Assembly: GCA_963676835.2 (NCBI GenBank)
Contig: CAXXFF010000002.1
Coordinates: 576,001 to 640,000 of the forward strand
DNA length: 64,000 bases
Direction: 5' to 3'
Source of the DNA: Marispirochaeta sp.
GTDB lineage: Bacteria > Spirochaetota > Spirochaetia > JC444 > Marispirochaetaceae
Shown: one piece after another, positions 24,925 to 53,544 of the stretch
Numbering within the stretch: position 1 is the first letter of the stretch
How the letters are laid out: the number at the start of each line of letters is the position of its first letter
Notes under the pieces: model-generated
The model's database searches: none
What the model was told of the DNA's origin: nothing
The model's input: the letters and a program-made list of their open reading frames with translations, nothing else
Made by a program: the position numbers and the translations under genes

Positions 24925-24930
24925 AAAATA

Positions 24931-25018
24931 CGGAGAGAGAGGGATTCGAACCCTCGGTGCCCGGTTAGAGCACACACGCTTTCCAAGCGTGCACCTTCGA
25001 CCGCTCGGTCATCTCTCC
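24931..25018 (-). tRNA. tRNA-Ser(GGA)
   Basis: Acceptor GGAGAGA/TCTCTCC; anticodon arm CACGC-TTGGAAA-GCGTG; long variable arm; no encoded CCA. Confidence 0.95.
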
Positions 25019-25094
25019 ATACACAACTTTCTTTCCGGATTGATTAAAAGTGGATTCACCGGCCTTCGCCGCTTTCGAATCCTTCTCTTCCTTA

Positions 25095-25181
25095 CGGAGA
25101 GAGAGGGATTCGAACCCTCGGTACGGCACGCCGTACAACGGCTTTCGAGGCCGCCCGATTCAACCACTCTCGCATCTCTCC
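25095..25181 (-). tRNA. tRNA-Ser(CGA)
   Basis: Anticodon arm GCGGC-CTCGAAA-GCCGT; T loop GTTCGAATC. Confidence 0.95.
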
Positions 25182-25189
25182 AGAGATAG

Positions 25190-25263
25190 CGTACCCAAGA
25201 GGACTCGAACCTCTGACCTTTAGGTCCGCAACCTAACGCTCTATCCAACTGAGCTATGGGTAC
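25190..25263 (-). tRNA. tRNA-Arg(GCG)
   Basis: Acceptor GTACCCA/TGGGTAC; anticodon arm TTAGG-TTGCGGA-CCTAA. Confidence 0.93.
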
Positions 25264-25271
25264 AATTAAAG

Positions 25272-25358
25272 CGGAGAGGGAGGGATTCGAACCCTCGGTG
25301 CAGTCACCCACACAACTCCTTAGCAGGGAGCCCGATTCGACCACTCTCGCACCTCTCC
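25272..25358 (-). tRNA. tRNA-Ser(GCT)
   Basis: Anticodon arm GCTCC-CTGCTAA-GGAGT. Confidence 0.95.
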
Positions 25359-25626
25359 ACGAAAAACCTGATACATGGCGCCGAAGGATGCGAACTTCGG
25401 CATAGTTTGGTTGACAGTAAAAGCTGCAACCTGTGACACAGCGGTGCTAAACGCTGTGTGAGAAGGTGGGATTCCCTTCCGATGTCCGGCTTCCTGCCGG
25501 CCATCTACAGGCCCCTCCGGAGTCACTGGCGCTCGGCATCCTGCCTCGCTACCGCACCTAATCGGTGCGCGTTCCTCCGGTTCGAATCCACCTTTTTTTG
25601 TTCAGCGGCAAGGCGCTGAACCTTAT

Positions 25627-25711
25627 CGGAGAAGGTGGGATTCGAACCCACGGAGCCTCTCGGCTCAACGGTTTTCAAGACCGCCTCCTTCGACCGCTCG
25701 GACACCTCTCC
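25627..25711 (-). tRNA. tRNA-Ser(TGA)
   Basis: Anticodon arm GCGGT-CTTGAAA-ACCGT. Confidence 0.95.
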
Positions 25712-25730
25712 ACTCAAAACTAGGTGTCAC

Positions 25731-29203: not shown

Positions 29204-29219
29204 TGTTTCACGTGGAACA
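29204..29219. promoter_or_regulatory. parS site 1
   Basis: TGTTTCACGTGGAACA. Confidence 0.9.
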
Positions 29220-29314
29220 TTACACCGATACACATCCCAGCATTTCACATAGAAGCAGGACCCCATACTGATCGAGAAAACTTATCATAGTCGAAGGGAG
29301 TTCGAAACCCACTC

Positions 29315-29330
29315 CGTTTCACGTGAAACA
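29315..29330. promoter_or_regulatory. parS site 2
   Basis: CGTTTCACGTGAAACA. Confidence 0.9.
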
Positions 29331-29644
29331 GTACTCTGATAAGGATCTCTTTCATAAGCATAAGAATCCCGGAGCAGCCATTTTACTGTCGGCTACACAG
29401 CTACGTGAGATGATTTCCGGTATATACATGGTCTTCTAATTTCCTGAAAAGATGGCACCGCCATATTCAACCTCTGCTGTTTATAATTCTGCAAGATAGA
29501 ATGGCTATTTAAAATGACAAGTCTCAACAAACCTTTTCAGGTCATACTGAGAAGACATCTACATTTTTCAAACAATTATTACAATGTGAATATTCCTGTT
29601 GATTAAGCAGCATTCAGGTGGTTGAACGGCGTCAAAACCAGCTC

Positions 29645-29660
29645 CGTTTCACGTGAAACA
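29645..29660. promoter_or_regulatory. parS site 3
   Basis: CGTTTCACGTGAAACA. Confidence 0.9.
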
Positions 29661-29769
29661 ATACGATGATTAAAAACCCCACCCTCCATAATAACGAGAA
29701 AGCCCCGCTGATTAAGAAACCTCCTGGTGGTTGAACAGAGTGGAAACCAGACACTGATACACTTATCTT

Positions 29770-29785
29770 TGTTTCACGTGAAACA
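29770..29785. promoter_or_regulatory. parS site 4
   Basis: TGTTTCACGTGAAACA, perfect palindrome. Confidence 0.93.
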
Positions 29786-29787
29786 GC

Positions 29788-29820
29788 AAAAAAAAGCCGC
29801 CCGGAAACCCGGACGGCTGC
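29788..29820 (-). terminator. Intrinsic terminator of gyrA
   Basis: Minus strand agccgtccgg-gttt-ccgggcggct followed by a T tract. Confidence 0.85.
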
Positions 29821-29824
29821 TGAT

Positions 29825-29840
29825 TGTTTCACGTGAAACG
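29825..29840. promoter_or_regulatory. parS site 5, abutting the gyrA stop codon
   Basis: TGTTTCACGTGAAACG. Confidence 0.9.
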
Positions 29841-44339: not shown

Positions 44340-45512
44340 ATGTCAAATAGATCCTATCTCTTCACTTCCGAAAGTGTCTCGGAAGGTCATCCGGATAAAC
44401 TTGCAGACCAGGTTTCAGATGCTGTACTTGATGCCTGTCTTCAGGGAGATCCCAATTCAAAAGTTGCCTGCGAAACCTTTACCACCACAGGAATGGTACT
44501 GGTTGGAGGCGAAATAACCACCAACACCTATGTGGATATCCAGGAAGTTGCCCGGGGTGTAGCCAAGAAAATCGGCTATGATAAACCAGAATACGGCCTT
44601 GATTATGAATCCATGGCAGTAATGAACACCATCCACAGTCAGAGTCCTGATATTAATCAGGGAGTTGTCGGCCATGGCCTTAAAGAGTTTGAAGGACAGC
44701 AGGGTGCAGGCGATCAGGGAATGATGTTCGGCTTTGCCTGCTCAGAAACCGAAGAACTGATGCCGGCTCCCATTTCCCTTGCTCATAAACTGCTGCTGCA
44801 TGCTGCAGATATCCGTAAAAGCGGAAAACTGACATGGCTCCGACCGGACTCAAAAAGCCAGGTTACCATTGAGTATGACGGACATACACCGAAAAGGATT
44901 GATACTGTTGTTATCAGTCACCAGCACGATGACGGAATCGGTTATGACGAACTTAAATCTGAGATCATTGCCAAGATTGTCAAACCCATACTTGAGCCTA
45001 CCGGACTGCTGAATGAGGATACCAAGTACTTCATCAACCCTACCGGCCGATTCGTAATCGGCGGCCCCCACGGTGACTCCGGGCTGACAGGGCGGAAGAT
45101 TATTGTTGACACCTACGGTGGTATGGGCCGACACGGTGGCGGTGCCTTTTCCGGTAAAGACCCCAGCAAGGTAGACCGTTCAGCAGCCTATATGGCCCGC
45201 TATGTGGCAAAAAATGTGGTTGCTGCTGGTCTGTGTGAACGATGTGAAGTTCAGCTCTCCTACGCTATCGGAGTTCCTTTTCCGGTGAGTGTAATGGTAG
45301 AGGATTTTGGTACTGCAAATGTTGATATCACGAAGATTGAAACCGCGGTTAAGGATATTTTTGACCTCACTCCGGGAGGAATCGTTAAAACCCTCGATCT
45401 GCTGCGTCCGATTTACCAGGAGACAGCCGCCTACGGTCACTTCGGCCGGGACAGCTTTCCCTGGGAAAAGACAGATAAGGCTGCAGAGCTGAAAAGCGCC
45501 TGTGGAGCTTAA
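44340..45512 (+). CDS. metK: Methionine adenosyltransferase
   Basis: [28 protein letters not shown]. Confidence 0.98.
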
Positions 45513-45540
45513 ACTACACTAATCTTACAATTAACAGATG

Positions 45541-45572
45541 GCTGTCCTGGAATGTACCGGGGCAGCTTTTTT
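45541..45572 (+). terminator. Intrinsic terminator after metK
   Basis: gctgtcctgg ... ccggggcagc followed by tttttt. Confidence 0.8.
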
Positions 45573-45575
45573 GTT

Positions 45576-45637
45576 ACAGGATGTACAGGATAGGAAGGAT
45601 ATAAAAAATAATATTTATACTATCCTTCCTGCCATGT
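45576..45637. repeat. REP-like palindromic element upstream of the GxxExxY gene
   Basis: acaggatgtacaggataggaaggata - 19 nt AT loop - tatccttcct. Confidence 0.75.
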
Positions 45638-45686
45638 TTTTTGCTGTTTGTTGAATCAAATCTACAGATTCGCGGTAATAACAGTT

Positions 45687-46109
45687 ATGCAGTCTGTTTC
45701 AATCCTGGATAATATCACTGAAATGATAATTGGAGCATCTTTCGAAGTTATAAATGAACTTGGATCAGGGTTTCTTGAAAAAGTTTATGAAAATGCCCTG
45801 TGTAGAGAACTTGAACAACAAAGGTTAAAAGTTGATCAGCAGAAAAAACTTGATGTCTGGTATAAAGGATCCTGTGTTGGACAATACCGGGCTGATTTGC
45901 TGGTAAATAACCAGATAATCGTTGAATTAAAAGCTGTAAAACACTTAGAGCCTATAAATTCTGCTCAGGTAATTAATTATTTGAAAGCATCAAATTATCC
46001 CTTGGGATTATTGATAAATTTTGGCAATCCAAGACTCGAAATCCGACGTTTATTCAATAGAAACGATAGGAATCAACAAGATATACAGGTTAGGAAGGAT
46101 CTGTGTTAA
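45687..46109 (+). CDS. GxxExxY protein (PD-(D/E)XK nuclease fold)
   Basis: LGSGFLEKVYENAL, YRADLLV...IIVELKAV, GLLINFG; ATG at 45687; AT-rich. Confidence 0.92.
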   Translation: MQSVSILDNITEMIIGASFEVINELGSGFLEKVYENALCRELEQQRLKVDQQKKLDVWYKGSCVGQYRADLLVNNQIIVELKAVKHLEPINSAQVINYLKASNYPLGLLINFGNPRLEIRRLFNRNDRNQQDIQVRKDLC

Positions 46110-46143
46110 TTCCTTTTCATCCTTCCTATCCTCCCCATCTTGT
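46076..46143. repeat. REP-like palindromic element at the 3' end of the GxxExxY gene
   Basis: 25-bp arms (20/25 complementary) around an 18-nt loop; left arm is 22/25 identical to 45576-45600. Confidence 0.8.
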
Positions 46144-46146
46144 CCC

Positions 46147-47139
46147 CTATTTCTTCCACTCCCCTGCATCTAGTCCGGATTTAACCTCCTTAAACTGATC
46201 CGCAGTAAACTGGGCTCCCTTCACGGTGACAATCCTGCTGGCAAGCCATGAGGCGCAGTAACCTGACTCTTCCGCAGACAATCCCTGGCTGAGCCCGTAA
46301 AGAAATCCTGCAGCGTAGGTGTCCCCTGCTCCGGTTGAGTCCACAGCATCAACCTTGAATACGGGAATCTGAAAATCCTCTGTTCTGGTATGGACAATGG
46401 ATCCCCGGGAACCGTCTTTAACCACGGCGATATCACAGACCCGGCCAAGACGATCAACACAGCCTTCCAGGGTATCACAGCCGTAGAGAATTTTCGCTTC
46501 TTCACAGTTTGCAAACAGGATATCCACATGGTTATTCAGAAGATCGATAAAATCATCCCGGTTGCGGGTTACCGCAAAAGGGTCGGCCACATCAAATACA
46601 ACCTTTGTATTCCCTTCCCGGCAGACTTCTATAGCCTTGAGAATAGCGGCTTTCTGCTCCTCCGTATCCCACATATAACCGGTAAAATAGAAATAGTCGG
46701 CATTGTAGACCATCTCCACATCAAGGTCAGCCAGGGAAAATTCCCGGTTTGCACCGAGATAGGTATTCATGGTTCGCTCTGTATCCGGGGTAATCAGGAT
46801 TATACTTGAACCGGTTGCCTCATCTCCCTGTTTCAGGGTCGATTTAGGGGAAATCTCCTTCAGCATCCTTATATACTCATTTCCTTCCTTATCCCTGCCT
46901 ACCTTACCGCCGACTGCGGCTTCTACACCGAGGGATGCCAGGGTAATAATGGTGTTGGGACAGGAGCCGCCACAGCGGTATTCTATGGGGCGGCCCTCCA
47001 GTGTGCTGAGTATGCGGGAGCGTTCATCCAGGTCAATCAGGTGCATGGTTCCCTTGGATAGACCGAGGGTTGTAATATCCTGTTCTTCAACCTGAATGAG
47101 AATATCGATCAGGGGATTGCCGATGCCGAATATGTTCAT
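46147..47139 (-). CDS. PfkB-family kinase, probable adenosine kinase
   Basis: GIGNPLID, GGSC.NT, ERTMNTYLGA, DSTGAGD; convergent on ahcY-metK. Confidence 0.85.
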   Translation of the reverse strand: MNIFGIGNPLIDILIQVEEQDITTLGLSKGTMHLIDLDERSRILSTLEGRPIEYRCGGSCPNTIITLASLGVEAAVGGKVGRDKEGNEYIRMLKEISPKSTLKQGDEATGSSIILITPDTERTMNTYLGANREFSLADLDVEMVYNADYFYFTGYMWDTEEQKAAILKAIEVCREGNTKVVFDVADPFAVTRNRDDFIDLLNNHVDILFANCEEAKILYGCDTLEGCVDRLGRVCDIAVVKDGSRGSIVHTRTEDFQIPVFKVDAVDSTGAGDTYAAGFLYGLSQGLSAEESGYCASWLASRIVTVKGAQFTADQFKEVKSGLDAGEWKK

Positions 47140-53523: not shown

Positions 53524-53544
53524 AGTAGAGCTTAAGGAGTTTTT

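Follow-up and report, generated by a model that had tools for sequence, protein, structure and literature searches.

A small nuclease-fold gene between periodic inverted arms in Marispirochaeta: a lineage-specific insert and its candidate repeat partnership

Between a metK-like gene and a kinase gene, the genome of Marispirochaeta sp. carries a short AT-rich gene of the GxxExxY family that is bracketed by two related palindromes. This arrangement raises the question whether gene and palindromes form a mobile cassette and whether the encoded protein acts on the repeats, as a preliminary description had proposed by analogy with the REP palindromes around RAYT transposases. The window, i.e. the whole stretch of 64,000 nucleotides that was analysed, contains a unit of about 570 bp with four repeat arms (→← gene →←) around an intact gene for a GxxExxY protein of 140 amino acids with a PD-(D/E)XK fold. 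The features of the locus are listed below; G000 denotes the genome of the window and G002 to G006 denote five congeners.

44340..45512, plus strand: left flank, an ORF which we take to be metK-like
45540..45575, plus strand: host terminator-like hairpin and T-tract behind metK; the cassette starts immediately after it
45576..45600, plus strand: arm A, outer left end, three RGAT cores at a 9-nt pitch
45612..45637, minus strand: arm A', degenerate inverted partner of arm A, best-paired core at 45621-45630
45687..46109, plus strand: GxxExxY gene, 140 aa (TIGR04256, 154.6 bits; PF13366, 151.5 bits)
46076..46100, plus strand: arm B, second arm of the left type, 22/25 to arm A; the 3' end of the gene extends into it
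46101..46118, no strand: spacer of the second palindrome, 18 nt, containing the stop codon of the gene
46119..46143, minus strand: arm B', outer right end, with the GATGGGG word common to the right arm in G002, G005 and G006
46147..47139, minus strand: right flank, PfkB-family kinase, which adjoins the metK terminator directly in four congeners
53524..53544, no strand: empty counterpart of a second site, which holds the cassette in G002, G005 and G006 and an arm remnant in G003

The recurrence of the 25-mer of arm A, 500 bp further on from start to start and with 22/25 identity (88%), was confirmed. All three cores of arm A are of the (A/G)GAT type that had been reported for both copies; in arm B the middle core reads GGTT, not GGAT. 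Each copy had also been assigned to its own hairpin with a loop of 18-19 nt. This holds for the second hairpin (46076-46100/46119-46143; 80% complementarity, 18-nt loop), while pairing in the first is limited to the inner ~10 bp (45592-45601/45621-45630) around a loop of 19 nt. Arm A' is better preserved in G004 than in the window. The outermost arms A and B' are 80% complementary across 30 nt. Folded as plus strand, both hairpins beat all 200 shuffles (z -3.2 and -3.4). Direct pairs of at least 22/25 at distances of 100-600 bp occurred nine times within the window and not once in ten order-3 Markov windows; the remaining pairs of this kind are situated in a tRNA cluster, in the vicinity of parS-like sites and in a coding repeat.

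The gene, with its likely start at ATG 45687, is indeed AT-rich (GC content of 34% vs 50% in each neighbour). As described, its ORF enters the second hairpin and stops inside the loop (TAA, 46107-46109). This C-terminal tail has low model confidence (pLDDT 71 and 51) and is missing from the homologues in G002, G005 and G006; the overlap of gene and hairpin is probably incidental. The position behind the metK terminator and 3 bp from the last arm to the kinase stop was correctly given, but the name adenosine kinase was too specific, for the protein belongs to the PfkB family and scores below every specific NCBIfam cut-off. The cassette lies behind a terminator and between convergent genes, with one terminator-like site at 45540-45567. 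A promoter scan of the locus gave nothing above shuffles, and Rfam nothing above noise, one sub-threshold snoRNA match being rejected. The contigs of four of seven sequencing runs contained no joint at the cassette that would indicate excision or a circle; this says nothing about such forms, since contigs drop rare variants and the best-matching run may itself be the source of this DNA. The four-arm layout likely represents a gene-plus-palindrome unit beside a second copy of the palindrome, and a loss of the two inner arms would convert it into the common two-arm form described below.

Further features were observed in the window. Five palindromes that we take to be parS-like lie within 640 bp at 29204-29840, with a chance expectation of 0.01; together with ORFs that are presumably recF-, rnpA- and yidC-like, they suggest that the window is likely near the replication origin. 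A tRNA cluster at 24930-25712 comprises four tRNA-Ser and one tRNA-Arg. Between the kinase and the regulator mentioned below, the segment 47302-52762 contains genes of the sulfotransferase family (Pfam) as well as ORFs that are presumably cysQ-, cysD- and cysN-like. This block is missing at the corresponding place in all five congeners, including the closest, G004.

The metK-kinase junction is filled in G000 and G004 and empty in G002, G003, G005 and G006, hence in four of the five congeners. In the empty junctions the kinase gene follows the terminator directly; hairpin and T-tract are present, the arms are absent. About 2 kb further on, G002, G005 and G006 possess a gene of 61-67% identity that is enclosed by a single left and a single right arm. 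Reciprocally, neither G000 nor G004 has an insert at this second junction (53524..53544 in the window), which lies between ORFs that we take to be regulator-like and metF-like; G003 contains an arm remnant there. A further relative was found in G003 at a third location, where it is embedded in long tandem expansions of this arm word. The six genes of the genus with this arm type form one clade over three sites (SH-aLRT 84 in a quick tree). The word pattern of arm A is that of the left arm of the relocated cassette in G002, G005 and G006. Both sites, and two gene-less pairs as well, share the words GAT-RDAC on the left and GAT-GGGG on the right, so that the outer arms A and B' represent the element ends; five other pairs listed do not keep these words. 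Gene and arms together make up a single lineage-specific insert of about 570 bp, and one protein subfamily is located at two addresses, with G003 three, within a genus. The exact insertion junction at the window locus could not be placed, as the empty relatives are too divergent (metK 84-86% at the amino acid level). Among the observations named in advance as contrary to the idea, two of three were examined, and neither spoke against it: the gene is not fixed at its locus, and repeats do flank its homologues. The proposal of a mobile cassette was borne out by the empty sites in congeners and by the repeat flanks of homologues.

Several neighbouring observations were made in the genus. In G003, the 9-nt word is tandemly repeated over several hundred bases on either side of a GxxExxY gene, always in one orientation (L236:1954-3030, contig C101; C549:143215-143372). 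The loci L238 (G005 C1:1194000-1199500), L234 and L213 are array-like hot spots, in which arms stand amid nucleotidyltransferase, HepT-like, PBECR2 and AAA_14-DUF4143 genes, with a second 9-nt arm type nested inside; a pattern for these nested CAGAG-type arms was too strict and found 0/5 genomes, though the arms are visible by eye. Another, multi-copy GxxExxY clade of the genus is devoid of arms and has a long 5' hairpin leader instead (congener loci L011, L012, L015-L017, L019-L024, L026, L029 and L031). Several of these leaders pair over the ribosome-binding site, with z values down to -8.4 and 9/16 at or below -3. L014 and L018 are identical genes in two places of G005. A family of small proteins with internal heptad-like repeats is encoded in G000 at C2:195260-195862, with paralogues near C2:335852-337917; its several copies occupy junctions that hold arms in congeners, and a congener homologue had no Pfam match.

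The membership of the window protein in the GxxExxY family is based on full-model scores far above the cut-offs (TIGR04256, 154.6 bits with a cut-off of 35; PF13366, 151.5 bits with a cut-off of 22). It is the single GxxExxY protein of G000, and its nearest named proteins are from Marispirochaeta. The predicted structure (pLDDT 90.9) agrees with the PD-(D/E)XK-like fold assumed at the outset. Its best structural neighbours were 1y88 (Z 8.4, rmsd 2.2 over 85 aa) and 3ijm (Z 8.2), and nearly every neighbour listed is a nuclease of the restriction-endonuclease-like fold; those at low Z (5-6) include the Hjc resolvase and a homing endonuclease domain. Foldseek gave no match at E ≤0.001, a sequence search for solved relatives none better than E 0.45, and the structure atlas no usable look-alike beyond PF13366. 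The modelled fold is PD-(D/E)XK and not HUH. Only PF13366 and TIGR04256 matched the protein; features of HUH-Y1 enzymes, strand-transfer transposases or TIRYTs were not found in it. Across 147 homologues, E31, D70, E80, K82 and Q94 are each conserved in 146 and Y98 in 142; these residues are taken as the catalytic set of the fold, and their QxxxY motif is like that of RecB and Cas4. Internal stops were present in 7/147 homologues; the copy of G006 has a stop. Orthologous copies differ with a dN/dS of 0.07-0.10, and the dS of orthologous cassettes (0.37, 0.40, 0.77 and 0.95) is of the order of that of metK (0.62, 0.49 and 0.87 in the three pairs computed). It follows that the gene has long occupied its site and is under selection, and such long stationary copies under purifying selection point to a host-level or addictive role. 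The family was encountered in 33/151 Spirochaetota and 29/61 Planctomycetota genomes sampled; it is rare on plasmids (8/72,556), and 50,697 phage records yielded no member. PADLOC yielded no convincing match, the one weak hit being AbiEii (E 0.0013). The superfamily review classes PF13366 as 'Unknown' and reports that it was transferred several times between bacteria and archaea (PMC3424549), and in one of the papers containing the word GxxExxY a passage mentions it only as a domain near a reverse transcriptase.

The repeat flanks were followed through the family in 139 loci (80 best query matches from genome contigs, 30 from the order and 29 from the phylum). After removal of four partial genes, seven loci with short flanks and two duplicates, 126 loci remained, a sample that leans to relatives of the query. 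Palindrome-type repeats around homologues had been predicted, and an inverted match of upstream and downstream flank (score at least 15) was present in 86/126 loci, as opposed to 0/111 control flank pairs 900 nt away. Direct matches were observed in 34 loci, and no inverted pair at this threshold in 40/126, including the genus clade with the 5' hairpin leader. The period of 9 nt proved to be specific to the subfamily of the window gene: among the 252 flanks, strong periodicity was found at 10 nt in 100, at 9 nt in 25 and at 8 nt in 5. Nor is a gene between two hairpins the typical layout. In the 65 loci of the ten-nt type, a single gene in a single inverted pair was the most frequent arrangement (30/65), and opposed pairs on both sides were seen in 3/65. 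The simple elements of this type (n=29) have sharp outer ends and a median length of 439 bp, and in 24/29 the upstream arm includes an in-frame ATG. Elements sit at operon junctions, in one case even within a stop/start overlap, and the orientation of the gene may be opposite to that of its neighbours.

The expected co-variation of protein and repeat was recovered in a quick tree of 147 rows, in which labels set by regular expressions left 53/147 loci as 'none', some wrongly. Nearly all ten-nt-type loci (61/63) fell into one clade of 74 rows (SH-aLRT 95) from many bacterial phyla and archaea, all 16 loci of the CAGAG/CGAA type into another, and the repeat label changed 14 times along the tree vs 47.9 times after shuffling. 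That the repeat type follows the protein tree demonstrates co-inheritance, not recognition. Paired arms agreed at 11.70 of 14 variable positions in register vs 10.75 out of register (44 loci), far beyond the permutation null (difference 0.07, sd 0.20; 0/5000 permutations), and were therefore copied from, or selected to match, each other. The purine-rich arm stood upstream on the sense strand in 76 of the 80 loci with a clear bias. G-T and A-C mismatches were equally frequent (134 vs 132 in 96 loci; 40 vs 37 in 44 loci), which speaks against a one-strand stem, whether of RNA or of REP-type single-stranded DNA, and agrees with a cruciform or with binding sites in duplex DNA. A spacing of the three cores near one helical turn would suit repeated binding on one face of the helix.

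Signs of target duplication were sought at the outer flanks. The longest direct match was 4.2 within and 4.0 across 29 loci, and no duplication is visible at the two genus sites. The insertions are old, and the closest empty allele is only 89% identical; it belongs to a relative of a Scytonema locus, which itself shows a possible 5-bp AT-rich duplication within chance. Empty alleles also occur at a Methylophilaceae junction, where the downstream gene was seen in 28/30 loci and the GxxExxY gene was present in the query's own alone, with one decayed arm and one lone arm of another type among the others. One Nostocaceae junction (L321-L335) contains GxxExxY cassettes, 7-nt tandem repeats, GTAG-type hairpins or nothing, depending on the genome, and is a shared hot spot for several repeat families.

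The dispersed hairpins anticipated for a REP-like system were lacking in the genome of the window and present as gene-less copies in its congeners. In G000, motif scans, short BLAST searches, a weight matrix from 31 congener arms and a scan for periodic inverted elements revealed one lone additional arm (C2:1091490), the score of which (24.1) is under the best reversed-genome control (25.8). In the five congeners, a 22-nt arm pattern had 7, 29, 4, 10 and 8 matches with 0 in the reversed control, including short gene-less inverted pairs. One such pair is present in G002, G005 and G006 and absent from G003, where the flanking genes abut. Gene-less palindromes stay unfilled in genomes with an intact gene, and each arm type in a genome of the genus has one GxxExxY gene. 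The same arms also enclose or flank nucleotidyltransferase, HepT-like, BrnT/CopG, MazF-like and AAA_14-DUF4143 genes. With up to 2 mismatches, the pattern matched 16 of 151 Spirochaetota genomes; more than two matches were confined to G169 (10), whose single GxxExxY gene bears these arms. The pattern missed G130, which has the gene with related 9-nt arms, and single matches also occurred in genomes without the gene. Among 60 Planctomycetota (centre excluded), the 10-nt repeat was detected in 5/28 genomes with the family vs 0/32 without (Fisher p=0.018, kinship ignored) and in 3/4 genomes with a close homologue of the ten-nt clade (p=0.001, kinship ignored). The fourth repeat-bearing genome has a truncated gene between arms, and the fifth (G223) has family members only without that arm type. 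As plain REP-type hairpins the repeats are poorly described, given the missing HUH motif, the mismatches without strand bias, the lack of dispersed hairpins in this genome, the prevalence of a single gene within a single inverted pair and the failure to detect a target duplication.

Two observations concern other enzymes in these genomes. A Y1/RAYT enzyme was considered as mobiliser in the congeners and rejected, as no full-length Y1 transposase gene was found in the arm-rich G002, G005 and G006; G000 encodes a Y1_Tnp gene (C2:781279-781614, L296) with two copies of a short upstream motif and without GxxExxY arms. A second pair of nuclease and repeat is formed in G000 by DUF559 (PF04480) genes at C2:1320049-1321524 and C4:272811-273741 (L319, L320). 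Both adjoin a GC-rich REP-like hairpin family with 11 pattern matches genome-wide, and their ORFs end by reading into the hairpin.

We consider it probable, if only just, that the cassette embodies a partnership resembling TIRtrons and REPtrons, whereby the nuclease would recognise and cleave the arms of its own element and leave it to host repair to join and spread the copies. The protein would bind the tandem words of 9-bp pitch in double-stranded DNA and cut at the arms; host repair would then place copies of the arms, either alone or together with the gene, at other gene junctions, where inserts may be tolerated. The gene-bearing unit would relocate rarely and then persist vertically, like a RAYT gene with its REPINs. 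To our knowledge a PD-(D/E)XK hydrolase cannot rejoin DNA, and the joining must therefore come from the host. The partnership is favoured by the insert, its changed addresses, the conserved distinct ends, the gene-less copies, the clade-tracking arms and the intact conserved active site. Against it, the window genome has an intact gene and yet no gene-less hairpin pair, arms also surround other small genes, 40/126 loci have no inverted pair, and no target duplication was seen. The clustering on the tree may come from linkage alone, kin not being independent, and a dS of metK order indicates that copies sit still for long periods.

The same facts could be read differently if the arms were ends of miniature elements moved by another enzyme, or operators for self-repression, and GxxExxY a favoured passenger, likely a toxin or defence nuclease. 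This main rival is rather unlikely; in its favour, arms also bracket toxin-antitoxin, nucleotidyltransferase and ATPase genes, the vertically inherited copies are under purifying selection, the in-frame ATG (24/29) makes the upstream arm overlap the translation start, and the PD-(D/E)XK fold is unable to join DNA. There is also the precedent of Rpn, another PD-(D/E)XK family once called transposase and now reported as an anti-phage toxin (10.1101/2023.05.02.539157). Against a passenger stand the arm words, which across phyla differ from one protein clade to the next, and the ten-nt repeats, which among the Planctomycetota sampled were found only in genomes with the family. Likewise, no full-length Y1 transposase was found in the three arm-rich congeners (the search covered the Y1 family), neither a target duplication nor a convincing PADLOC match was detected, and the family is rare on plasmids and was not met in the phage records.

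An RNA-level role and homing fit less well than a passenger. If the arms acted in RNA, a long stem would loop the gene out of the operon transcript like an intervening sequence, so that inserts at junctions are tolerated. Operon-junction locations including a stop/start overlap, arms matched in register and the sense-strand bias of the purine-rich arm agree with this; we nevertheless regard it as very improbable, because the expected excess of G-U over A-C is absent, the window copy follows a terminator and has convergent genes on its two sides, the gene is sometimes inverted relative to its neighbours, and Rfam gave no match above noise. Scarcely more probable is homing, where the nuclease would cut gene-less palindromes and recombination with a gene-bearing copy would fill them. 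Homing accords with the layouts that place the gene in or next to a palindrome, with the recurrence of the left and right words in gene-less pairs and with the low-Z likeness to Hjc resolvase and a homing endonuclease domain; it is contradicted by empty metK-kinase alleles without arms (a remnant exists at the second site of G003 only), by palindromes left unfilled despite an intact gene in the genome, and by the single gene per arm type and genome in the genus. A chance likeness of purine-rich tracts around an ordinary AT-rich orphan gene has a practically negligible probability. In its favour, the arms are purine tracts of low complexity, and genomes lacking the gene also contain single matches to the pattern, but the 86/126 inverted matches vs 0/111 in controls refute chance, and so do the hairpins that beat 200 shuffles, the lack of such direct pairs in ten Markov windows and the conservation of the arms at the second site.

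Beyond the genus, the partnership of nuclease and arms might extend to a new class of mobile elements in bacteria and archaea, a generalisation we offer tentatively and which may well prove too broad. A stand-alone PD-(D/E)XK nuclease of ~130 aa would read tandem 8-10-bp words in inverted arms and cut without strand transfer, gene-less and cargo-carrying copies would arise at gene junctions through host repair, each protein clade would have its own repeat code, and DUF559 with its GC-rich hairpins may be a parallel case. No description of a link between GxxExxY genes and repeats was found in the openly accessible literature searched; the design is real, widespread and apparently undescribed. 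GxxExxY is a very large orphan family, and its arms give every clade a defined substrate that can be put to the test. Should the nuclease spread the arms, enzyme-repeat partnerships of the REP type would have arisen a second time from an unrelated, non-joining fold. This would account for one class of intergenic repeats and for one way in which toxin-antitoxin genes come together at gene junctions, and a nuclease of 130 aa with a clade-variable repeat code would have interest as a tool. The window locus contributes a reciprocal pair of filled and empty sites within one gene neighbourhood.

Among known systems, insertion sequences with terminal inverted repeats and MITEs share the sharp, distinct left and right ends, the tandem sub-terminal sites and the gene-less and cargo-carrying derivatives. 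GxxExxY elements differ from them in having no DDE, HUH, serine or tyrosine recombinase, no detected target duplication, no identical multi-copy genes in the window subfamily and almost no presence on plasmids. TnsA, XisH, YhgA-like/Rpn and I-Bth0305I have the same PD-(D/E)XK fold (PMC3424549, PMC5350276, 10.1101/2023.05.02.539157). TnsA and XisH work with a separate joining enzyme, and the pertinent parts of these sources describe no tandem-repeat inverted arms belonging to any of the four.

The closest parallels are TIRtrons and REPtrons. TIRYTs are tyrosine (HUH) transposases, and many of their terminal inverted repeats carry a GGGGWSAS-type motif (PMC3733652). As in TIRtrons, the GxxExxY gene lies inside one pair of terminal inverted repeats, and the repeats belong to moderately abundant families (PMC3733652); in the window the outer arms form such a pair with 80% complementarity over 30 nt. 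In contrast, GxxExxY elements have neither the HUH transposase nor the GGGGWSAS-type motif, and their arms are internally periodic. REPtrons combine RAYT/TnpA-REP with REP/REPIN repeats (PMC5581495, PMC8266576, PMC6006769). They resemble the present system in a small enzyme gene flanked by its own repeat type (here 86/126 loci), in usually one gene per repeat type with several repeat families per genome, in chromosomal, vertical persistence with a patchy spread (single copy in G000), in gene-less inverted doublets elsewhere (here in congeners and other genomes, not in G000) and in repeats and proteins that vary together. They differ in the enzyme, HUH-Y1 instead of PD-(D/E)XK (the Y1_Tnp gene of G000 lies elsewhere, at C2:781279), and in the repeats, for REPs are short hairpins with a GTAG-type foot and the GxxExxY arms are tandem arrays of 25-30 nt. 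The arms of the window, being tandem 9-nt arrays, have no GTAG foot, and the matching rows in supplement 2 of PMC6006769 are short footed hairpins; the CnGA foot of class 3 Y1 elements resembles the arm core, as judged by its description there. GxxExxY arms further have no strand bias and low copy numbers (units to tens), and their gene-bearing unit has itself relocated inside a genus, whereas REPtrons reportedly do not travel as a whole (PMC6006769). With neither the HUH enzyme nor the footed hairpin, the GxxExxY cassette is not a member of these systems, but it would work like a REPtron or TIRtron.
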